A stretch of DNA of 64,000 nucleotides from Candidatus Poseidoniaceae archaeon (lineage in GTDB: Archaea > Thermoplasmatota > Poseidoniia > Poseidoniales > Poseidoniaceae). The notes below the pieces were generated by a model. It was not told the origin of the DNA. It saw only the letters and a list, made by a program, of their open reading frames with translations, and made no database searches. Of the stretch, positions 5,913-34,851 are shown in pieces. The stretch covers positions 7,915 through 71,914 of the forward strand of contig JADHSC010000006.1 in the NCBI GenBank assembly GCA_016777125.1, read 5' to 3'. Each line of letters begins with the position of its first letter. Within the stretch, counting starts at the first letter, position 1. Both the position numbers and the translations under genes were made by a program.

Positions 5913-8900
5913 ATGGGCAAAAATGGAGCGGCCGCTGTTTTCCTTTCACTGTTAATGTTATCAGGGTGCTTTGGAAGCGGCGATTCAAATGCTGATGTTG
6001 AACCGGAGGATACTGTTGCAATCCCATACACCATCGAGGCTTCATGGGATCAAGAAATTGTAACAGGAGAAATAGGTGAAATAAGTGAATTGAATATTCT
6101 TCTTGAAACTACTGGAGAAGGTAGTTACACTATGGAATACAGCATCAGCCATTCAAATGAAGTTGAGGATGCTGCTGAGTGGAGTGTTACAGAGAAGGCG
6201 ACCTACATTTCGATTATACTGTTACCAAACGTACCAGGTACTTATCTGATTGAAGTAAAGATACTCCCTTCAGAAGGCGAATTAATTACGATGACAAATG
6301 CGGTTGAGGTCCAAACCCCTGATGAAGGTACAACCTCGTTGATTGTACCACAATACATCGTAGCAGAATCTTCTATGCTCTTCGTTCAAGGCCAAATCTT
6401 GCACCAGTCTATTGAATCATGCTTTGCTAACATCACGATTCCTCAGGGGGATTTCAATCTCGAATCATATGTATTATCAATCAAAGAAGATGGAACATTC
6501 AATCACATGCTCTCGGAATTAGACTTCCGCAATGAGTCATTTATAATCGCAATATATGCGCAATGCGGTATATACACAATGTCAGAAGATTTTGGAAATA
6601 CAACAATCATCATCGAAGCCAACAATGATGCAGATGGCGACGGAATCTTAGACGAGATGGATCAATGCCCAGACGGAATTGGAGAATCTGATGGTTGGGC
6701 TTCGAATCAACAAAATGACATTGACCAGGATGGATGTAGAGATTTCGATGAAGATATTGATGATGATAACGATGGCATACTAGATGCAAAGGATGGTTGT
6801 GTTTCGACCATTGGTTGGACAAGCACCCTCAGCAATGATCGAGACAGTGATGGCTGCAATGACGATACCAATGATGACGACGATGATGGAGATGGCATCC
6901 CTGATGTCGATGACTCGTGTCAGTTTGGTGAAGTAAACTGGCCTGCAAACCTATACAATGATTGGGATCAAGATGGATGTCATGATTTAGTTGAAGATAT
7001 TGATGATGATAATGATGGTTCCTTAGATACTGATGATTCTTGTCAAAAAGGAAAATCTAATTGGGAGGGCGAGAGGAATTCCAATACTGACTTTGACATG
7101 GATGGATGTTATGATTTAACAGAAGACGAAGATGATGATAATGACAGTGTTAATGATGTCAATGCCACAGGTGCAGACTTAGATCAATGTCCTTTCACAC
7201 CGCTAGGAGCAACTGATGTTGATGAATTCGGATGTGCAGCTGTACAACGCGATTCTGATTCTGATGGTGTCAATGACCTCTTAGACCAGTGTGAGGGAAC
7301 TCCTACTGGATTACTCGTTAATGCTGCTGGATGTGCAGATTTAGATGGTGATGGAGTCTTTGCGAATGTTGATATTTGTGACAATAGTCCTACAAAATGG
7401 ACAATTGATGTTCAGGGGTGCGCCATTAATCAGAAATCAATCCCTTGGACATCTGGAACGACTGTCAGTGGACCAATGGATGTTGTCCCAACATTCACAG
7501 TCCCCACCCTTGACGGTACATTCACCCTACAAAATAAATGGACTGGGGATGATGTTTATCTCTTCATGTTCAAGTATACTGACTCAAGTGGCAACTCAAA
7601 TTCTGCAACTTGGGCTACAAATCCAGGCACATTTATCAGGAACCTCCCCGAAAATACGCATCTCTTTTATGGCTCATTTGATTCAACATATCACAACGAT
7701 ATAACATCGAGAAAGAGTGATGTTGAATATCGATTAAATCCAAGTGAAGAACTAGAATGGTCCGGTCGTATCCATTATATCGACATGGATGCAAGTAATA
7801 TTCAGGGTGGACTTGGACAGATGATTTCTAACACGAATAGTCCATTTTTCATGGGAATTGATCGATTCCAAAGAGCAAGAGAAACTGGTTCAATATATGC
7901 TTGGACAACGCAAACCAATGACCCGAACCACTATGCGTATGAACCGCACCAATGGAATGCTGAATTTGAACCTGAAATTCGAATGCAGGATTCTGGAATT
8001 GATGTTGTTACATTGTATGATTTCGAGAGACATGCTGGAGGATGGGGATCCAATCATAATTCATATCGAAATGCCACGTTCACTATGCCAAATAATATGA
8101 CGTCTTATGACACTCTCGAGGTGTTCCATGAGCATGCTTGTGATGAACGAAGCAATTGGTTCCAAAAGAGCGATAGTTCCTATGGGGGATGTCATGAGTG
8201 GGATTATCTTGCTCACCTCTACATCTGCGATGCAAATAATTCATCGACATGTGGGACTGAATTTATGCGATGGATTACAACATATGGACGTGAAGGACGT
8301 TGGCTTACCGACATTAGCCCATATCTCTTCATGTTAGAGGAGGATGAAACGCGTAGATTCCGTTACAAAGGAGCGAATAAAGGCGATATGACGATTAAAT
8401 TCTTATTCTCAAATTGGGGCAGTGGAGAACGTCCACATGATGCAACATTTGCATTCACTGGTGGTCAGTTCGATGGGACCTATAACAACGAGAGCCGTTA
8501 TGTGCGAAGTTTAAATTTCTCAGTTCCAGATAATACAACGAGAGTTGAAATTGTCGCAACAATAACGGGACATGGGTTCCAAAAAGATAACGCTAATTGT
8601 GCAGAATTTTGTGATCATGAACATCATTACTATGTTGATAATCATCATACCTACGAATGGCATCCAATTGTAAGTTCCAATACTGGATGTGAAAATGAAA
8701 TCGAAAATGGAGTCGTGGCTAATCAATTTGGATCTTGGCCATTTGGCCGAGCAGGTTGGTGTGCAGGGCAAGATGTCAAGCAATGGTCCTACGATATTTC
8801 ATCATGGGTTGATTATAATGGTCAAATTAACGAATTAACATATCGTGGACTCTTTAATGGGCAGGAATACAATCCAACTGGAGAATCGAGTAAGGGTGGC

Positions 8901-26759: not shown

Positions 26760-29222
26760 ATGAGTACTCCAAGACTACCTGAGAAGCGATGGTCAATCGA
26801 CCTTGAGAAGAAAATACAAGAGGAACATTACGCTGATTCTGAATCATATCAACAACGGTATGGATTCAAACCTTCAAGCGGAAAACCTCTGTTTGTCGTT
26901 GACACCCCACCCCCCTATCCTTCAGGCACCTGGCACATTGGAGCAGTTGCTCAATATTCAATGATAGATGTCATTGCTCGATCACAACGATTACTTGGAA
27001 AGGAAGTCTATTTCCCGTGGGGCGTTGACAGAAACGGTATTAATATCGAATTCACAGTCGAAAAGAACACTAAAAGGAAGATGAAAACCTATGACCGAGA
27101 GGAATTCCTGACATTGTGCAGAGAGACAATTGAAACATTCACACAAGCCATGAGAAAGACTGCAGCCCGTGTTGGATTATCATGTGATTTCGCTGCCGAA
27201 TATTTGACAGACGCACCAGATTATCGTGCGGTCACTCAATCAATTTTCATCGACTTATTCAAGAAAGGAGATATCATTGAGGACCTCCGTCCAAACATCT
27301 ACGATCCTGTTGAAGGGACGACCATTGCAGATGCTGAAGTTGAACGGATATCAAGAAATACCAAACTTATCGATGTAAAATGGCAAACGGATTCTGGTGA
27401 GGAACTGATCATATCAACTACACGACCAGAGATGATTTGTGCTTGTGGCGTTGTTGTCGTCCATCCTGATGATAAACGATATCAACACCTTGTTGGAAAG
27501 AAAGCCATCTTGCCGATGCCAGTAAGTGGAAGAGAAACTTCTGTCGAAATTCAAACCCACCCATCGGTCAAATCCGAATTCGGAAGCGGTATTTTGATGG
27601 TCTGTTCCTTTGGTGATCAAAACGATGTTGCCGTATTTAGAGAACTTGGATTGACACCATATCAAGCCATCGACCTCGATGGTTGCATGACGGATATCTC
27701 CGCAGACCTATCGGGAATGAGTGTCATTGAGGCAAGAATAAAGGCTACTGAAATGCTTGAAGAATCTGGAAAGATTTCACAGATTGAAGAACGTTCACAA
27801 GAGATTCCAGTTTCTGAACGGGGAAAGAATCCTGTTGAAATTATCCTTCTAAAGGAATGGTATGTACGACAAACCCATATTCAAGACAGAATGCGAGAAC
27901 ATATTGATGAAATCGAGTTCCATCCCCCAAGAAACCGACAATTTTTACTTGACTGGATGGACAATATCAGTATCGATTGGCCAATATCAAGACGTCGATG
28001 GTATCATACTGAGATTCCAATTTGGTATTCGCAAGATGAACAATTCATTGTGGTCCCACCATCGGGTCATTATGTCCAGCCATGGAAGGAACAACCTCCT
28101 TTCGATTCTCGAGTTCTTAATCGTGAATCAAGAGAAGACATAGGTTCATTTAGTGAAATTAAAGATTCACTTGGTGAAATTCGTGGTGAAGAAAAAGTAT
28201 TCGATACGTGGATGGATTCATCAAATTCAAATCTTTTCGTAAGTGGATATTTGAATCATCCAGAAGTGTTTGAAAAAGCATTCCCAACCGCATTGAGGCC
28301 ACAAGGAAAAGAGATAGTTCGCACGTGGTTGTACTATACACTCCTGAAGTCAACCCTCTTACTTGACAAGCCTGGTTTCCAACATGTATGGATTGATGGC
28401 CTTGGAATGGATCCTTGGGGGAGAAAAATGTCAAAGTCTCTAGGCAATGGCATTGATGCGGATAGCGTTCTCGAATGTGGCGCAGGTGGGCGGACAGGAT
28501 CTTGGAAGGTCAAAGGACCGAGCGGTTCAGTTAGTCTCAAAGCAAATAAAATCGGAAGTGAATGTTTCCGATTATGGAAGGCTTGTGAAGCCCAAGTAGG
28601 GGATGATTTCCATATTAATCCTGAAGAAATAGAAGCGAAATACTTCGGAGTACTTACTAAATTATTCAATGTTGCTCGATTTGCAAGCCAATTCGATATG
28701 CCCGAAATTGAACCTACAACGGCATTCCCGGTTGAGGATAGATGGATTCGTTCAGAATTTTCTTCAACCATGAACACTGTCGAATCATCTTGGAATGACC
28801 TTGACATTTACACAGCAACACAAGCGCTCAAGACCTTTGGAACTGGCATCTTGCCATCGCATTGGCTTGAAATGGCAAAAACTCGACTCTATGATGGCGA
28901 TATGCATGCAGCTTGGACAATTCATTCAATCTTGAAAGATTTCCTTGCAGCTTTTAGTCCAGTATGTCCTTTCTTTTGCCACCATATATCGATGACGCTC
29001 TATGGAGAAAGTTCAGTGGATGTTGACCAATTCCCAAATCAAGGATCTGTCGATGAGCAACTCAACAACCTAACTCCAGAAGTCGAAGCCTTCAACAGCG
29101 AAGTTTGGAAGACAAAGAAGGAACAAGGTCTATCGCTTAATGCTGAAATAGAAGGAGTCACGATTCCAGATTCGCTTGAAGAATTCAATGGCACCCTCAC
29201 ACGAATGCACAAGTTACTCTGA
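26760..29222 (+). CDS. valS: Valine--tRNA ligase (archaeal type)
   Basis: DTPPPYPSG.WHIGA, STTRPE, DWPISRRR, VFDTWMDSS, LRPQGKEI, KMSKS. Confidence 0.93.
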   Translation: MSTPRLPEKRWSIDLEKKIQEEHYADSESYQQRYGFKPSSGKPLFVVDTPPPYPSGTWHIGAVAQYSMIDVIARSQRLLGKEVYFPWGVDRNGINIEFTVEKNTKRKMKTYDREEFLTLCRETIETFTQAMRKTAARVGLSCDFAAEYLTDAPDYRAVTQSIFIDLFKKGDIIEDLRPNIYDPVEGTTIADAEVERISRNTKLIDVKWQTDSGEELIISTTRPEMICACGVVVVHPDDKRYQHLVGKKAILPMPVSGRETSVEIQTHPSVKSEFGSGILMVCSFGDQNDVAVFRELGLTPYQAIDLDGCMTDISADLSGMSVIEARIKATEMLEESGKISQIEERSQEIPVSERGKNPVEIILLKEWYVRQTHIQDRMREHIDEIEFHPPRNRQFLLDWMDNISIDWPISRRRWYHTEIPIWYSQDEQFIVVPPSGHYVQPWKEQPPFDSRVLNRESREDIGSFSEIKDSLGEIRGEEKVFDTWMDSSNSNLFVSGYLNHPEVFEKAFPTALRPQGKEIVRTWLYYTLLKSTLLLDKPGFQHVWIDGLGMDPWGRKMSKSLGNGIDADSVLECGAGGRTGSWKVKGPSGSVSLKANKIGSECFRLWKACEAQVGDDFHINPEEIEAKYFGVLTKLFNVARFASQFDMPEIEPTTAFPVEDRWIRSEFSSTMNTVESSWNDLDIYTATQALKTFGTGILPSHWLEMAKTRLYDGDMHAAWTIHSILKDFLAAFSPVCPFFCHHISMTLYGESSVDVDQFPNQGSVDEQLNNLTPEVEAFNSEVWKTKKEQGLSLNAEIEGVTIPDSLEEFNGTLTRMHKLL

Positions 29223-30326
29223 TTCATCAATGCCATCTAATGTTGTTTGGCGATGGTCGATTACTTCCAGTTGTCCTAGACGAAATCCAACGAGTCGTAT
29301 GTTTTGTTCCTGATTCACATTTTGTGCAAAAAGCATTCGAACTTGACGGAGGAATACATCAGTATCATCCATAGCAACTGGAATAGAACGTCCATGAGTG
29401 TGCGTTTCAAAACCAGTATATCGTAACTTAACCTCTGCCAGCCTACCTGCAATACCCTCTTCTCTGGCCTTTGCCATGACTCTTACAGTTAGTTTTTCAA
29501 GCACTTCTAGAACAACTTCATGATTCGATTGGTCAACAGGGAACGTTCGTTCTTTTCCAATCGAACGTCGAGATCGGATTGGACTGACCTCATTTGAGGT
29601 GGTCCCATCCACAACACGTAGTAGCCATGAGGCAAATCGTTCAGAGGTCATTCTTGCTAACGCCAGTTCGCCTAACTCCGAGGCTTCATCTACGGTTGAG
29701 ATTCCCCATTCCGCCAATCTGTTCGCTGTTTTAGGACCAATACCTGGCACTTCCCGTACGGAACGTTGTTGAAAGAATGAATGAATTTCATCAGGTAATA
29801 CTCGGTGAATCCCATTTGGTTTATTCACTTCAGAAGACATTTTAGCAACAACTCTCGTTGAACCGATCCCAAAAGAAGCAGTCAAGCCAACTGAATCTGT
29901 AATTTCGCTCTTTATTCGTCGAGCGAGTCCTAGCGCTTCATCCCAATCTCCGTTCGTAAACTCAGTTATGTCGAGATATGCTTCATCGATACTCGCCTGT
30001 TCAAATTTATCAGCATATTTTCGTAAGATCTTCATGACACGTCGAGACGCCATTGAATACAGGGAACGAGTGCCTCGAATATATCGTCCCGGGCCGTATG
30101 GACTTCCTGGGCAACGTCGCCATGCTTCAGTGATGGGCATTGCAGAACGTACACCGTAGGTCCTAGCAGCATAATTACAGGTCGATACGATACCTCTACC
30201 ACGGCCCTGTTGAGGGTCTGAACCGATGATTAGTGGCTCATCCTCTGGAAAACCATGATGAAGCATCTCGACCGATGCAAAAAAGGCATCGAGATCACAA
30301 TGAATTAGGATACGAGGTTCGCTCAC
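29214..30326 (-). CDS. dinB: Y-family DNA polymerase IV (DinB/Dpo4)
   Basis: HCDLDAFFASVE, STCNYAARTYGVRSAMP, SIDEAYLD, KPNG, VPGIGPKT, little-finger RSIGKERTF; C-terminal QTTLD; GTG 30326 preferred over 30362. Confidence 0.93.
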   Translation of the reverse strand: MSEPRILIHCDLDAFFASVEMLHHGFPEDEPLIIGSDPQQGRGRGIVSTCNYAARTYGVRSAMPITEAWRRCPGSPYGPGRYIRGTRSLYSMASRRVMKILRKYADKFEQASIDEAYLDITEFTNGDWDEALGLARRIKSEITDSVGLTASFGIGSTRVVAKMSSEVNKPNGIHRVLPDEIHSFFQQRSVREVPGIGPKTANRLAEWGISTVDEASELGELALARMTSERFASWLLRVVDGTTSNEVSPIRSRRSIGKERTFPVDQSNHEVVLEVLEKLTVRVMAKAREEGIAGRLAEVKLRYTGFETHTHGRSIPVAMDDTDVFLRQVRMLFAQNVNQEQNIRLVGFRLGQLEVIDHRQTTLDGIDESE

Positions 30327-30363
30327 AATGCAAGATAACTGCCGAAGGTGTTTGAAATTCATC

Positions 30364-30374
30364 CTTCACTTTCA
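30364..30374 (+). promoter_or_regulatory. Candidate DNA-damage response box CTTCACTTTCA
   Basis: 10/11 match to the haloarchaeal UV motif TTTCACTTTCA, in the dinB/radA-like divergent intergenic region. Confidence 0.45.
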
Positions 30375-30435
30375 TAGTACTCCCTGCGAAACATAACCCT
30401 ACTGCCTTCGCCGGACAACAATACTTGGTGATGGA

Positions 30436-31173
30436 ATGACGGATATTGAAGCAATAAAGAAAACCCCAATTTTTCCTGAACTTCTCATCATGAAAAGGGG
30501 CATAACATGGCTCGAAGGGCCAGGCTATTTTGGTAAGGACATGCGTTTCCTCGCTCGGGAAACAGCTGCGGTTTTACTCAGTGAAAGTCACACAGTCCAT
30601 TGGATTGATGGAGTAAATCGATTCGATCCAAGTACTTTTTTTGAATCATTAAGAAATCGAAACTGTGGTCTTGAAGAAGGTTTACGACGACTCTACATTG
30701 GACGAGGATTCACGCTTCATCAATTGCATGCATTGATTCTTCGTGCACATCAAGAGACCATGCTAACAAAGGCTTCTTTGGTCGTTGTTGATGGATTACT
30801 TGCCATGTTTCTCGATGATCAAATCCGGAGGTATGAGGGACGTACAATACTTCGTCATTGTTTGCATTCATTACAGAAATTATCCAAACATTGCGCAGTC
30901 ATTATTACCGATGGACACGCAAAAAGTCGACTTCATCAACAACTTAAGCAGACGGTAAAGATACACGCAGACAGGCATTTACATGGCTCTTGGCAAACAG
31001 CAAGAAAGAACATATTGATTCTCAGAAGTACCACCGATTCACAGACATTGCTACGACTTCTTCCTAAAACGAAAGATGAATCTCAATCGAGACTTGAGGG
31101 CTTTACATCCATTGGTCGAGTCGCACAACACCAACTTCTGTCAATTGATGCTCAGTCCACCCAAAGGGAGTGA
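30436..31173 (+). CDS. Degenerate RadA/RecA-fold protein of the kind associated with PolB2
   Basis: Altered Walker A GPGYFGKD, WIDGVNRFDP, RGFTLHQL, Walker B-like LVVVD; QSRLEGF PIP-like motif; GGTGA SD. Confidence 0.75.
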   Translation: MTDIEAIKKTPIFPELLIMKRGITWLEGPGYFGKDMRFLARETAAVLLSESHTVHWIDGVNRFDPSTFFESLRNRNCGLEEGLRRLYIGRGFTLHQLHALILRAHQETMLTKASLVVVDGLLAMFLDDQIRRYEGRTILRHCLHSLQKLSKHCAVIITDGHAKSRLHQQLKQTVKIHADRHLHGSWQTARKNILILRSTTDSQTLLRLLPKTKDESQSRLEGFTSIGRVAQHQLLSIDAQSTQRE

Positions 31174-33517
31174 GTATTGCCCAGATCGCACGAATGGCTT
31201 GTTGCCGATAATATGCTAAATCGATATTTTGAACTGTTTTATGTAAGTCAGGACACTCTTCGGAAAGAAGAACTCGAAAGAGTGGATTCCTGGCATCTTT
31301 CTCTCGAACAAGAAATCGTGCTTTCGAACCGACGGTGAGAGGAAATCCATGTGCTTGATGCCTTTGGAAAGCAAGCATTGCTAGAGATTGTACTGAACCT
31401 TGAGTCGGTTCTCTTGAAATGCGTTGAGCAATCAGAAGGTCACCAATTGTAATCATTCCATTCTCGAGTTTCTCAAGTTCATCAAGTAGTAGGTTCTGAA
31501 CCATTTTCTGAACAGAATAGGATGGAAGACCGTTGCTTAGATCAGTGGTTTTTGAGAGAATCTGCAAAGCTTGTTGCTGGAGATTACGAATCCATTGGCA
31601 GGTTGAATGTTGACGCAATTCAAGACCTCTAATCTTTAGACCATCCTTCCCATATGCCCAATATTTGGTTAGAGAACCTCCTGAATGGACTCGACTCGGT
31701 AAAAAGGCAATACAATCGTATGTCGCCTCATATTCGAGAGGAATTCCGGTGAATGTCTGCACTTCTTGGGCTAAAGCCAAAGCATCTTCGTGTTGTTGTT
31801 CGTATGTCCTTCCCTGTACATCACGAACCCAAATTGAGTCAACGATGGCATGAAGAACCTCCCAACCTGACTGTTGAGCATGTTCAATCGTCTGAAGAAG
31901 AAGTTCTCTCGCCCAGGCACAGATTGCTTCGTGTGCTTCAATACGTCCAAACCGAGCGTTACGATAACCAGTGTAGCCAAAGCAAGTGACAAGAAGCCAT
32001 TTCAAAGCATTCTGTTGACGATCTGCTCGGTCTTTTTTGTTCTTGACTTGTTTCTTCAATTGTTTTCTTCGCTCAATGAGTGGAGCTACCACACGACCAA
32101 GGAAACCATGAATCCGGCCACAGGTATGCGTTGAAAGGCCTGGGACTTGGAAAGCTGTCGACGAATAACGTGGAAAGGCAAGGCTTGCAGACTGCCATTG
32201 CCGTTCATGCAATTGGAATTTCTTTTTTGCTGATTCGGGATGCAGTGGCAATGGAGCGGTATTGCTGGCTGGCTGGCAACAACTGCAGTTCAGAGTTTCC
32301 GGCGAGATATTTCGTGTTGCGATAATACTTGGAAAGAGACTGGCAAAATCCAGTTCGATGACGTTTGAATAAACTCCAGGTTTGCTATCGAGGTAAAGTC
32401 CGCCCCGATCTGATTGAAGAAGATCCCAAGCACTTTTGGTATCTTCTGGCCTCGTTTTCTTCCATGGGACAAGAACATCATCTTCCATTGCTACTCGATT
32501 CTGAATGGCACTGATTACCGACCCAGGAGATTTACGAGCTGCATCGCTTATTCGTGTAGCGGAAACTACCGCTAATTCATACAGACCTGAAAGACCCCCT
32601 TCTTTGAACATAAAACTAGATGAAAAATCGATATGAATTCGACCTTCAAATGAAAATTGGGGGTCGCTACGAAGAACTTTCCCATAGGAATGAACTGTTC
32701 TTGCGACACCGATTTGGCGAAGAACGGAAGAATTGCGACCAAGCTTCAAGGTGTGCCCACTCCTCTTTGCATGCGTCATTAACGCTGGAAGAGCAAGCGT
32801 ATTACCATCCCGTGTAAAGATGACATCAGGGTCAACTTCTCTCAGACTCTGCCCAAGTGTCATAGCAAATGATGGATGGTGGGCAGGAATCATGAAACTC
32901 CTGCCAAACCTCTTCCCTTCTGAATCACATTCCTCTATTCGAGCAGAAGATATCTCAGTAGAACTATCTGCAAATCCCTTGTTCTTACAGAATTCAACTT
33001 CAAGTCGACAACATCTCAATGAACGTTGATTCACTTCCTGTTCCATTGCAATAAGTTGTTGATTTTCAATCATAACCGAAGAACCAATGGACAAACGCTT
33101 CGAAGTGAGATAGGATTGTTCTGGTTGCAAGTCCACCGAATAGAGGGTGAAGCGGACATGCTTCCCGCGTTCCTCGATATGTTGAGCAAGTTGTTTGAGT
33201 AATGCATGACCTTTTACTTCCACTGTGAGCACACGTGTTTTATCGACGAAACCGAGTTCCAATCGTTTGTATTCAAATAAATGACTTAATATCCCAAATT
33301 TGATCTTAATCTCTGGTTGCTGCAACCATTCAATCAGCATCTCAAGATCTGAAACTAAACCAGAAACGTGCAATGAGGGATTCCATTGTTCACGGTATGA
33401 AAACACTGGCCCTTCTTTTGGAACAATCCATACGATCATATCTTTTCTTTCCGAACAAAGATGGGCATCAAGAATCCATCCGTTATCTCCTTCAGCCTCC
33501 ATTGAGTACACCTGCAT
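31103..33517 (-). CDS. polB2: Family B DNA polymerase, PolB2 group
   Basis: Motif A LDFASLFPSII, NISPETLNCSCC insert, motif B QNALKWLLVTCFGYTG, motif C variant HAIVDSIW; exonuclease motifs degenerate. Confidence 0.85.
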   Translation of the reverse strand: MQVYSMEAEGDNGWILDAHLCSERKDMIVWIVPKEGPVFSYREQWNPSLHVSGLVSDLEMLIEWLQQPEIKIKFGILSHLFEYKRLELGFVDKTRVLTVEVKGHALLKQLAQHIEERGKHVRFTLYSVDLQPEQSYLTSKRLSIGSSVMIENQQLIAMEQEVNQRSLRCCRLEVEFCKNKGFADSSTEISSARIEECDSEGKRFGRSFMIPAHHPSFAMTLGQSLREVDPDVIFTRDGNTLALPALMTHAKRSGHTLKLGRNSSVLRQIGVARTVHSYGKVLRSDPQFSFEGRIHIDFSSSFMFKEGGLSGLYELAVVSATRISDAARKSPGSVISAIQNRVAMEDDVLVPWKKTRPEDTKSAWDLLQSDRGGLYLDSKPGVYSNVIELDFASLFPSIIATRNISPETLNCSCCQPASNTAPLPLHPESAKKKFQLHERQWQSASLAFPRYSSTAFQVPGLSTHTCGRIHGFLGRVVAPLIERRKQLKKQVKNKKDRADRQQNALKWLLVTCFGYTGYRNARFGRIEAHEAICAWARELLLQTIEHAQQSGWEVLHAIVDSIWVRDVQGRTYEQQHEDALALAQEVQTFTGIPLEYEATYDCIAFLPSRVHSGGSLTKYWAYGKDGLKIRGLELRQHSTCQWIRNLQQQALQILSKTTDLSNGLPSYSVQKMVQNLLLDELEKLENGMITIGDLLIAQRISREPTQGSVQSLAMLAFQRHQAHGFPLTVGSKARFLVREKDARNPLFRVLLSEECPDLHKTVQNIDLAYYRQQAIRAIWAILTPFGWTEHQLTEVGVVRLDQWM

Positions 33518-33779
33518 CTGTTAATTGACGTTCAAGTGCTTCAAGCCGCCCCTCCAAGACTCGAATTCGTTGATGAGCACCTAAGAGCATGGAAAGGAGC
33601 ATTGGTTTCCATTCTTCTTGTGCGGGAAGCATTCCACCTGCTGCTCGACGAGTGCGAACATCATGTAGCATCATATCGAAGTTGCAACAATCATCCAATG
33701 AAAGGGCTCTTCGATAAGGCACAAGACGTTCTATTTCCTGTTCGACACGACCTCTCCAAGTTGGTACTGTACGACCCAT
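33492..33779 (-). CDS. Small helical PolB2-associated protein (arCOG07300-like)
   Basis: MGRTVPTWR...YRRAL...F..M N-terminus; overlaps the polB2 start by 26 nt. Confidence 0.72.
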   Translation of the reverse strand: MGRTVPTWRGRVEQEIERLVPYRRALSLDDCCNFDMMLHDVRTRRAAGGMLPAQEEWKPMLLSMLLGAHQRIRVLEGRLEALERQLTDAGVLNGG

Positions 33780-33826
33780 GTCTTCTGAACTGCATCTCTA
33801 AGGCAAGACTTGTGCTCACACCACTT

Positions 33827-33837
33827 GCAAAGTGAAA
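33827..33837 (-). promoter_or_regulatory. Candidate DNA-damage response box TTTCACTTTGC
   Basis: 9/11 match to TTTCACTTTCA, 48-58 nt upstream of the small-gene/polB2 operon start. Confidence 0.4.
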
Positions 33838-33843
33838 ATGGAA

Positions 33844-34851
33844 CTAAGAAAGCGATGAGCGATTCACTGTTGTTTCTGGCAATGAACCACTCAAAGCGAC
33901 GAGGACCGCATCTGCAATATCTAATCCAACACGTCGTTGAGCCTCTATGGTTGCAGCCCCAATGTGAGGTGTACCGTGGAAATGTGGATGTTGTAGGAGA
34001 AGAGAAGATGCGTCAACAGGTTCGTTTTCAAACACGTCGAGGGCGAGTGATGAAAGTTGTCCATTTTCAAGTGCCTCCAAGGCAGCTGTTTCATCAATAA
34101 TCCCGCCCCTTGCACAATTAACGATGTGATTCCCACAAGGCAAATTATTCGGATCCTTGCCAGGCATCATTGAAATTCGTTCAGAATCAACAAGATGGTG
34201 AGTTTCATCAGTGAGGTTACAATGAATCGAAATGTGCGTGCAACGCTTGAACAAACCATCCACCGTTTTATGCATTGATACGTCAAATTTCTTGGCTATT
34301 GAACCTGGGAGATATGGGTCATAGGAATGAACCTCCATACCAAATGCTTGAGCGACTCGAGCAACACCTTGCGCAATCCGACCGAATCCAATCAATCCGA
34401 GTCGCTTGCCATAAAGTTCTGTCCCAGTCAACTCTTTTTTCGCCCATGTACCTGAACGAAGAGTACGGTCTGCAGTAGGAATGTAGCGAAGAGAACCAAG
34501 CAAATGAGCAACTGTCAATTCAACCACACTTTGTGTACTTGCCCTAGGTGCATTAACAACAGGAATTCCAAGTTTGGAAGCAGCATCGAGATCGATGTTA
34601 TCGACGCCAACACCAGCTCTTGCGACTACTTTGAGGCCGGGCGTACTTGCTTCTAGAATTTCCTTTGTTATTTTCGTAGCACTACGAACAATAACTGCAT
34701 CAAAATCAGCCAATGCTCCATCAAGTAAATCTGGGAGTTCAATGAATTGACGTACAACTTCACAATCAGCTTGTTCTAATCGTTTAATTGCTTCATCAGC
34801 CATACCATCAGTAACTGCAATCCTACGCATGAATTGGTCACTCTTCGACAC
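33844..34851 (-). CDS. D-isomer 2-hydroxyacid dehydrogenase (SerA-like, no ACT domain)
   Basis: VRSATK, RAGVGVDNID, GFGRIA, NCARGG, DVFENEP, TPHIGAAT. Confidence 0.88.
   Translation of the reverse strand: MSKSDQFMRRIAVTDGMADEAIKRLEQADCEVVRQFIELPDLLDGALADFDAVIVRSATKITKEILEASTPGLKVVARAGVGVDNIDLDAASKLGIPVVNAPRASTQSVVELTVAHLLGSLRYIPTADRTLRSGTWAKKELTGTELYGKRLGLIGFGRIAQGVARVAQAFGMEVHSYDPYLPGSIAKKFDVSMHKTVDGLFKRCTHISIHCNLTDETHHLVDSERISMMPGKDPNNLPCGNHIVNCARGGIIDETAALEALENGQLSSLALDVFENEPVDASSLLLQHPHFHGTPHIGAATIEAQRRVGLDIADAVLVALSGSLPETTVNRSSLS

Follow-up and report, generated by a model that had tools for sequence, protein, structure and literature searches.

We analysed a 64,000-nucleotide (nt) stretch of DNA, here called the window, from a Candidatus Poseidoniaceae archaeon (positions 7,915 to 71,914 of contig JADHSC010000006.1, assembly GCA_016777125.1; genome G000 in our sample, 1.87 Mb and 93.7% complete), with attention to a group of DNA polymerase genes that lies between valS and pgdh. 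The list of open reading frames (ORFs) of the window contains four in this interval, each at the coordinates that an initial, sequence-only reading had given for it: dinB, coding for a Y-family polymerase; iRadA, a degenerate RadA; PolB2, a B-family polymerase of the Dpo2 type; and PPB2 (arCOG07300), a protein of 95 amino acids (aa). PPB2 and PolB2 are co-directional, and the end of PPB2 overlaps the start of PolB2 by 26 nt. Since iRadA lies on the opposite strand, converges on PolB2 with an overlap of 71 bp and diverges from dinB out of one short spacer, the genes do not form a single operon but three transcription units. The sequence-only reading, which described four genes packed together as one candidate machine, is thus right that they are neighbours and not right if taken to mean a common transcript. 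We consider it likely that the locus consists of a standard three-gene PolB2 cassette inserted beside an independent, housekeeping dinB, the two being neighbours rather than parts of one genetic or physical unit.

The Y-family polymerase, thought at first sight to be intact, proves to be so. Its profile matches cover the IMS core (131 bits), the little finger (IMS_C) and the IMS helix-hairpin-helix motif, with 278.4 bits it clears the NCBIfam cut-off of 256 bits for the Pol IV equivalog, and all 16 orthologues compared have the catalytic residues D23, D25, D126 and E127; a C-terminal stretch that contains RQTTL resembles a PCNA-interacting protein (PIP) motif. Although the ORF is open to 30362, the gene most likely starts at the GTG at 30326, giving a protein of 370 aa: this GTG is kept in all three same-genus loci examined, the 12-codon extension upstream of it carries two in-frame stops (TAG and TGA) in locus L004, and the DinB proteins of relatives start 3-5 residues ahead of the conserved RI(L/I)(I/V)HCDLD. 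The dinB match of one genome, G112, was itself flagged for stops inside it. Upstream of the GTG stands a conserved non-coding element, GGTGTTTGAAATTCAT on the plus strand, which is present at the loci where the cassette adjoins dinB and also at dinB loci that have no cassette (L023 and L025); aligned between genomes G054 and G003 it scores 38, above the maximum of 31 obtained in 200 shuffles. It is probably dinB's own promoter element.

PolB2 matches PF00136 with 100.4 bits and is 23% identical to the second PolB of the same genome (L001). When it is aligned to the PolB of P. abyssi, motif A (LDFASLFPS, aligned to LDFRSLYPS) keeps its Asp, motif B is altered (KWLLVTCFG), and motif C reads HAIVDS in place of YIDTDG, the DTD having become IVD with the second Asp kept. 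Compared with L001, it lacks the Exo I and Exo III regions, which show as gaps, and has GNTLAL in place of the NxxxFD of Exo II. These alignments bear out the earlier description of a PolB2-type polymerase with motif C HAIVDS and a degenerate exonuclease. The loss of the first motif C Asp and of the exonuclease motifs would also suit an inactive or regulatory complex associated with replication, as was proposed for PolB2 in 2014, when Makarova et al. considered such proteins inactivated (PMC4104785). We judge this explanation highly improbable for the Poseidoniales cassette, because the three polymerase motifs are almost invariant throughout the order, with those of A and C conserved in all 24 sequences compared, even though identity over the whole protein drops to 39-49%, which argues for a selected active site, and because Sulfolobus Dpo2, with the like substitution IID in the S. 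islandicus protein (PMC11791011), is an active extender polymerase (PMC8764526). The pair D370-R371, invariant in 22 phylum-wide sequences, is a candidate for the published D(K/R) loop motif, which follows a beta-alpha motif that binds iRadA. At its C-terminus PolB2 has a PIP-like tail of consensus Q-x-x-L-x-x-W/F, ending in RLDQWM in the window; the canonical motif is QxxLxxFF (PMC11791011).

The similarity of iRadA to Rad51/RadA is weak (Pfam E-value 1.4e-3, below the Pfam and NCBIfam cut-offs), and its residues 52-154 align to the ATPase cores of RadA structures in the PDB (E-value 2.8e-5), including residues 166-266 of 1pzn (E-value 7.4e-5). At 245 aa it has no counterpart of the RadA N-terminal domain. 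The broken Walker A that had been noticed is present: GPGYFGKD retains the Lys and has Asp in the T/S position. Among 27 order-wide orthologues the Lys position varies (K/R/S/G/D/Q/A), the Thr position is likewise variable or deleted, and the proteins of the sister family have a three-residue deletion within the P-loop; no Walker A residue is found among the invariant columns of the alignment. The tails of iRadA proteins are unconserved, and no PIP-like motif was found on them.

PPB2, the 95-aa MGRTVP protein of the earlier reading, begins MGRTVPTWR and matched no Pfam or NCBIfam family. Residues M1, G2, R3 and R9 are invariant in 37 phylum-wide sequences, and an AlphaFold2 model with a predicted local distance difference test (pLDDT) score of 91.7 consists of helices 8-24, 28-48 and 57-88. 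The best match in a fold search, the ECF sigma factor sigma H (5zx2_F, Z 5.2, root-mean-square deviation 5.5 over 81 residues), lies within the background expected of helical proteins, as does 1h3l_B at rank 27 (Z 4.2). The association of PolB2, arCOG07300 and inactivated RadA genes has been reported (Makarova 2014, PMC4104785), and an MGRT arm with Arg at positions 3 and 9 together with an iRadA that lacks the N-terminal domain has been described since (Timinskas 2025, PMC11791011). The three genes of the window are this published module, as the sequence-only reading had supposed (PMC4104785, PMC11791011).

We considered how the association of dinB with this module is distributed among relatives, in a sample of 151 genomes of the order (74 of the window's family in addition to G000, 74 of a sister family and 2 of a further family). 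The PolB2 query matches 71 genomes, 52/74 of the window's family plus G000 and 18/74 of the sister family, and the DinB query matches 82, comprising 73/74 of the window's family plus G000, 6/74 of the sister family and both of the further family. In the window's family, dinB adjoins polB2 in 40 of the 53 PolB2-bearing genomes (G000 included), 726-1201 bp downstream of it except in one genome, where the distance is 3161 bp; by genus the adjacency is found in 9/9, 9/13, 17/21 and 5/5 genomes of four genera and in 0/3, 0/1 and 0/1 of three others. Among the 18 PolB2-bearing genomes of the sister family there is no adjacency and no DinB match anywhere. That cassette (18/74) and DinB (6/74) never co-occur in the sister family is not used as evidence here, the expected overlap being about 1.5 and the relatives non-independent.

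Beyond the order, no DinB match was found in the 5.8-20 kb around polB2 that we compared for 40 loci from other families of the phylum, and 16 of those 40 genomes have PF00817 elsewhere. Where iRadA was detected in these loci, the genes mostly run iRadA, PPB2, PolB2 on one strand. A PolB2 search of the phylum matched 154 of 301 genomes, the weakest matches of which may be other PolBs, and three families in particular have PolB2 in 21/35, 5/5 and 4/4 genomes and PF00817 found in 0/35, 0/5 and 0/4, these genomes being incomplete; PF00817 was likewise not found in any of five PolB2-bearing genomes tested, also incomplete. A scan of contigs with a phylum-wide alignment, in a sample that overlaps the others, yielded 80 loci. 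dinB was adjacent in 33, all with at least 40% identity to the window's PolB2 and with the backbone genes described below wherever the flanks were long enough; it was absent from 23 Poseidoniales loci despite at least 3 kb beyond PolB2 and from 12 distant loci, and a further 12 were too short to judge. Two of the scanned loci, L152 and L164, are filed as a Verrucomicrobiales bacterium and a Salipiger bermudensis isolate; they have the Poseidoniaceae PolB2-iRadA-dinB-valS arrangement and are probably mis-binned contigs. The synteny survey therefore upholds the adjacency within one family (40/53) and not beyond it (0/18 in the sister family, 0/40 in other families).

The surroundings of dinB indicate which of the two partners is fixed. 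Comparison of the flanks of 40 fetched loci with the proteins of the window reveals a backbone, valS-dinB-pgdh-w15 and onward, that is conserved throughout the order with or without the cassette. It is found in two sister-family genomes that possess dinB (G049 and G119), and in five PolB2-less genomes of the window's family dinB stands directly beside pgdh. In six further genomes the backbone is intact and the cassette lies on another contig among unrelated genes (in one of these, G100, the contig ends after dinB, and in another, G114, about 2.5 kb separates valS from dinB), and the cassette is likewise among unrelated genes in G008 and G144. At least eight of the genomes checked have the cassette elsewhere while dinB stays in place. 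The adjacency seen in the window can thus be explained by insertion of the cassette into an order-wide syntenic backbone. A possible deletion scar of the PPB2 promoter between pgdh and dinB in G054 was rejected as not significant (score 29, against a mean of 19.3 and a maximum of 35 for shuffled sequences).

The internal layout of the cassette is constant, with iRadA convergent in all Poseidoniales cassettes examined and with PolB2, PPB2 and iRadA together in every Poseidoniales locus long enough to judge, yet the cassette occurs in at least seven distinct flanking contexts, at least six of them besides the dinB site (context A). In a PolB2 tree of 24 of the 27 cassettes, the context-A sequences group by genus, the pattern that vertical descent would produce. 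Cassettes at other sites, which come from four genera, are united in one clade (support 100/100), and this implies transfer or relocation as a three-gene unit without dinB. In one species group (L013:10048-11993, also L128 and L148) a 2.4-kb insert separates PolB2 from iRadA and carries genes of membrane-lipid type, one ceramidase-like and one for a CDP-alcohol phosphatidyltransferase.

These distributions bear directly on the idea of a true four-protein mutasome, in which DinB would bind iRadA, PolB2 or PPB2 in the manner of the bacterial ImuB with ImuA' and DnaE2, so that a single holoenzyme would contain two active sites. The adjacency of the genes in one family and a formal parallel, in that both systems combine a RecA-like protein, a Y-family protein and an alternative polymerase, speak for such an assembly. 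Against them stand the many genomes in which the cassette occurs without any Y-family gene, the movement of the cassette without dinB, and a dinB that retains every catalytic residue, encodes a PIP-like tail and is preceded by a separate upstream element; the published models, moreover, are of a pentamer of one PolB2, one iRadA and a PPB2 trimer, one arm of which docks between the other two proteins, and this pentamer is complete without a Y-family subunit (PMC11791011). Complex prediction of iRadA with DinB residues 13-382 gave a score of 0.00 in both runs and is evidence neither for nor against binding. We therefore regard the four-protein assembly as very improbable, and the initial proposal of a four-gene unit that includes dinB is not sustained: the Y-family gene is neither kept nor carried along with the cassette, the genes are transcribed as three units, and dinB, where the cassette is not adjacent, lacks the promoter motif that the cassette genes share.

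Table 1. Positions of the features of the polymerase locus in the window and, in the lower rows, of the damage-related genes that adjoin the cassette at other loci (numbered within each locus).
Feature	Position	Strand	Remarks
valS	26760-29222	+	From the ORF list
dinB	ORF 29214-30362, probable gene 29214-30326	-	Y-family DNA polymerase of IV/Dpo4 type, intact
Conserved dinB-proximal non-coding element	30347-30362	.	GGTGTTTGAAATTCAT as read on the + strand; 21-36 nt before the GTG of dinB
Cassette promoter motif, copy 1	30365-30380	+	Core TTCACTTTCA; toward iRadA, start 71 nt before the iRadA ATG
iRadA	30436-31173	+	RecA/RadA fold, degenerate P-loop, without the N-terminal RadA domain
PolB2	31103-33517	-	Dpo2-type B-family polymerase; motif C IVD, without exonuclease motifs
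PPB2 (arCOG07300)	33492-33779	-	95 aa; helical partner with MGRT N-terminal arm
Cassette promoter motif, copy 2	33827-33842	-	TCCATTTTCACTTTGC; start 63 nt before the PPB2 ATG
pgdh	33844-34851	-	D-3-phosphoglycerate-dehydrogenase-like; named from reading its sequence, not from a family search
Photolyase-domain gene, L014	5524-7542		
Photolyase-domain gene, L016	11845-13842		
Photolyase-domain gene, L020	11511-13847		
SRAP gene, L028	7303-8028		
SRAP gene, L029	12156-12797		
SRAP gene, L040	10914-11579		

That shared motif is a tandem hexamer of consensus TTCACTTTCACTTTCA, of the ANTTTC-like ACTTTC type. A search that chose one site per sequence placed it 60-83 nt before the PPB2 ATG in all 27 loci, in every context and in both families, with a few weak copies; the copy in the window, 2 nt past the pgdh stop codon, scores 16.1 with the position weight matrix (PWM). 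At most loci of the order, irrespective of their surroundings, it also precedes the iRadA ATG by 64-77 nt (a few iRadA loci with uncertain start codons score low), and the window's iRadA copy scores 11.3, the 99th percentile of random 120-nt windows being 11.1. Upstream of dinB genes that have no adjacent cassette it was found in none of 14 cases, the best score there being 5.8, below the random 95th percentile of 8.3. No PWM match of 13 or more was found upstream of the cassette in the 40 loci of other families of the phylum. In one distant Thermoplasmatota locus (L082:216-1683), the 16-mer GACAGTTTCACTTTCA has four occurrences, some 290 and 580 bp apart and far from polB2; this recurrence may be a repeated gene or a repeat array.

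When the window's genome was scanned with the PWM, the four best-scoring matches were all intergenic, and three of the top sites have an ATG 65-66 nt downstream that opens ORFs of 199, 58 and 79 aa. The gene of the 199-aa protein (G000 C42:3522-4187, L083) follows closely on the gene of a 472-aa TFIIB/TFB paralogue whose N-terminal extension is long. Its homologues (loci L087-L116) have the strongest copies of the motif, which precedes them by 61-74 nt in 29 of 30 loci, some of these in PolB2-less genomes. Searches of Pfam and the ESM Atlas with this protein returned only lineage-specific hypothetical proteins; hints of a beta-propeller are weak. The second site (G000 C42:51625-51646, L084) is a triple hexamer directly after the gene for the RFC small subunit, with the 58-aa ORF at +65, and the third (G000 C12:343-358, L085) precedes the 79-aa ORF at +66; neither ORF matched a Pfam family. 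Neither of the genome's two Orc1/Cdc6 genes lies near a scan match of 13.8 or more. Because the motif is found at the 199-aa protein loci even in PolB2-less genomes, it marks a small order-wide regulon, most likely damage-responsive, that includes the cassette and not dinB.

Several observations weigh against a wholly independent dinB. The adjacency is old and stable, being kept in the 40 of 53 PolB2-bearing genomes over four genera, and five of the 13 non-adjacent genomes of the family may reflect contig breaks. In the window's genus the motif stands about 40-50 nt from the dinB start, so that a regulator bound to it could also act on dinB. The cassette, furthermore, adjoins a DNA-damage gene in three independent contexts, the others being a photolyase-domain gene and SRAP; three such contexts are more than chance would lead one to expect and hint at selected clustering. 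The photolyase-domain protein (672 aa; PF00875, 31.6 bits) is encoded directly upstream of PPB2, in the same direction, in the transferred cassette lineage, and its homologue in the window's genome (61% identity, at C31:137224) lies away from the cassette. The SRAP gene is divergent from iRadA at three loci of the sister family, which is probably Thalassarchaeaceae. By eye, the 182-bp SRAP-iRadA spacer of L029 has three copies of the hexamer motif, and at L028 (G037) about two tandem copies of a repeat of roughly 60 bp directly precede the iRadA promoter motif (L028:8028-8200). In the window's genome both the SRAP and the photolyase-like gene are away from the cassette and lack the promoter motif. 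Enrichment of SRAP near polB2 has already been published (PMC11791011).

Recurrent clustering of this kind is the main reason for giving weight to a further explanation, a co-regulated translesion island in which the Poseidoniaceae dinB has been drawn into the cassette regulon and all four genes are induced together, as inserter and extender, with no complex formed between them. The tandem hexamer lies between the divergent core promoters of dinB and iRadA, in a geometry kept in all context-A loci, and in the window's genus its start is 3 nt beyond the end of the dinB-proximal element; the SRAP-iRadA pairs of the three sister-family loci, including the spacer with three copies, repeat the divergent geometry; and Dpo4 and Dpo2 of Sulfolobus cooperate sequentially in vitro (PMC8721586). 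Yet the motif always points toward iRadA at a preserved spacing (-64 to -77), and the gap between it and the dinB element, as read off the sequences, differs among genera (about 2 to about 24 nt). Away from the cassette, neither dinB nor SRAP nor the photolyase-like gene has the motif, and in Sulfolobus damage induced dpo2 but not the Y-family polymerase (PMC6061795). We hold this explanation to be unlikely, and return to the standard cassette beside an independent dinB as the arrangement that the locus probably represents.

How such a cassette would work can be outlined from homology. Bases 30436-33779 would constitute a standard PolB2 translesion "mutasome" cassette, PPB2 and PolB2 being translationally coupled on the minus strand and iRadA transcribed convergently from its own promoter, with a tandem hexamer of ACTTTC type some 65 nt ahead of the start codon of both transcription units, through which, we infer, they are induced by damage. 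By homology with Sulfolobus Dpo2 and from the published models, PolB2 would be an exonuclease-free extender polymerase held by one iRadA and a PPB2 trimer, and tethered to PCNA by its own C-terminal PIP-like tail. The separate dinB would be a housekeeping gene for a catalytically intact Y-family polymerase; it has a conserved upstream element to itself, its product has a PIP-like tail, and it keeps its place between valS and pgdh throughout the Poseidoniales. An ancestor of the Poseidoniaceae would have received the cassette between dinB and pgdh, and the arrangement would since have been inherited vertically with the surrounding synteny. Each polymerase would then reach PCNA by itself, DinB inserting opposite a lesion and the PolB2 complex extending; sequential bypass of this type in Poseidoniales is plausible by analogy. 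Four marine metatranscriptome runs from one study contain a relative that is about 98% identical, and in two of them the whole 5.4-kb stretch is on one 7.7-kb contig, these contigs giving neither strand, transcript ends nor level and possibly reflecting DNA carry-over.

The Poseidoniales (Marine Group II), which have no representative in culture, outnumber all other planktonic archaea in the sunlit surface ocean (PMC6461757), so that their tolerance of ultraviolet (UV) damage is inferred from genomes only. The present findings indicate that in these archaea the PolB2 extender module is a mobile cassette that can be dispensed with, that their Y-family polymerase is independent of it, and that the conserved cis-element of the cassette could serve as a marker of the damage response in metatranscriptomes; they also guard against mistaking an adjacency confined to one lineage for a new machine of four subunits. 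More tentatively, and with the odds against it, the tandem ACTTTC hexamers could define a DNA-damage regulon, probably responding to UV, and the mobile cassette could dock repeatedly, promoter-to-promoter, on damage genes so that the neighbours are co-induced. Were this so, the regulon would drive the PolB2 cassette together with several conserved small proteins of unknown function, such as those near the TFB paralogue and after the RFC small-subunit gene, docking would have taken place on dinB in the Poseidoniaceae, on the photolyase-domain gene in the transferred lineage and on SRAP in the sister family, and the window would contain a light-controlled island of inserter plus extender. Among the best 15 of 697 full-text matches none treated PolB2 together with Poseidoniales or Marine Group II. 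What is new here is the promoter motif found throughout the order and the recurrent position of the cassette next to damage genes; the motif regulon and the docking are not described in the parts of the PolB2 literature consulted for comparison, no literature search having been aimed at the motif itself.

The closest known system is the PolB2-iRadA-PPB2 mutasome itself, which the Poseidoniales cassette matches in its three families, the R3/R9 arm, the loss of the first Asp of motif C and of the exonuclease site, an iRadA without N-terminal domain or working P-loop, and a clamp-binding motif on one partner only (PMC11791011). The three-gene module has thus already been described, as has, for Sulfolobus, the idea of an inserter and an extender (PMC8721586), and it is the layout that is lineage-specific. 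In contrast to the published mutasome, the PIP-like motif is on PolB2 and not on iRadA, and no orc1/cdc6 neighbour was seen at the loci compared, the neighbours being dinB, a photolyase-domain gene or SRAP. The Poseidoniales iRadA also differs from the usual co-directional iRadA-PPB2-PolB2 order of other families of the phylum in being convergent and having its own promoter.

The bacterial ImuA'-ImuB-DnaE2 (ImuC) system likewise joins a RecA-like accessory protein to an alternative error-prone polymerase and is damage-inducible; its ImuB, encoded in the operon, is a Y-family adaptor without catalytic activity. The DinB described here, unlike ImuB, has an intact catalytic site and a transcription unit of its own, and the cassette can be present without it; PolB2 belongs to family B, unlike DnaE2, which is of family C. 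The architectural analogy with imuABC drawn in the sequence-only reading accordingly fails in its details, both on the intact active site and on the separate transcription of DinB.

A nearer parallel is provided by Sulfolobus, which like the Poseidoniales has a Y-family inserter (Dpo4) and a PolB2 extender (Dpo2) in the same cell. The Dpo4 and Dpo2 genes are not known to be adjacent. Bypass of lesions by Dpo4 and then Dpo2, precisely the mechanism supposed in the sequence-only reading, has been shown in vitro only, and for a crenarchaeon (PMC8721586, PMC8764526). The likeness may extend to the control of expression, since dpo2 of Sulfolobus is damage-induced in an Orc1-2-dependent manner, and the damage element of the Sulfolobales, ANTTTC, is bound by Orc1-2 at -23 to -55 from the ATG (PMC6061795). 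Each hexamer upstream of the Poseidoniales polB2 operon (ACTTTC) fits this element, as a resemblance only, and differs from it in being a tandem repeat, in standing at about -65 and in belonging to a Thermoplasmatota lineage. Should the proposed damage regulon exist, its tandem hexamers would be an echo of the Orc1-2 element of the Sulfolobales in a distant archaeal phylum.

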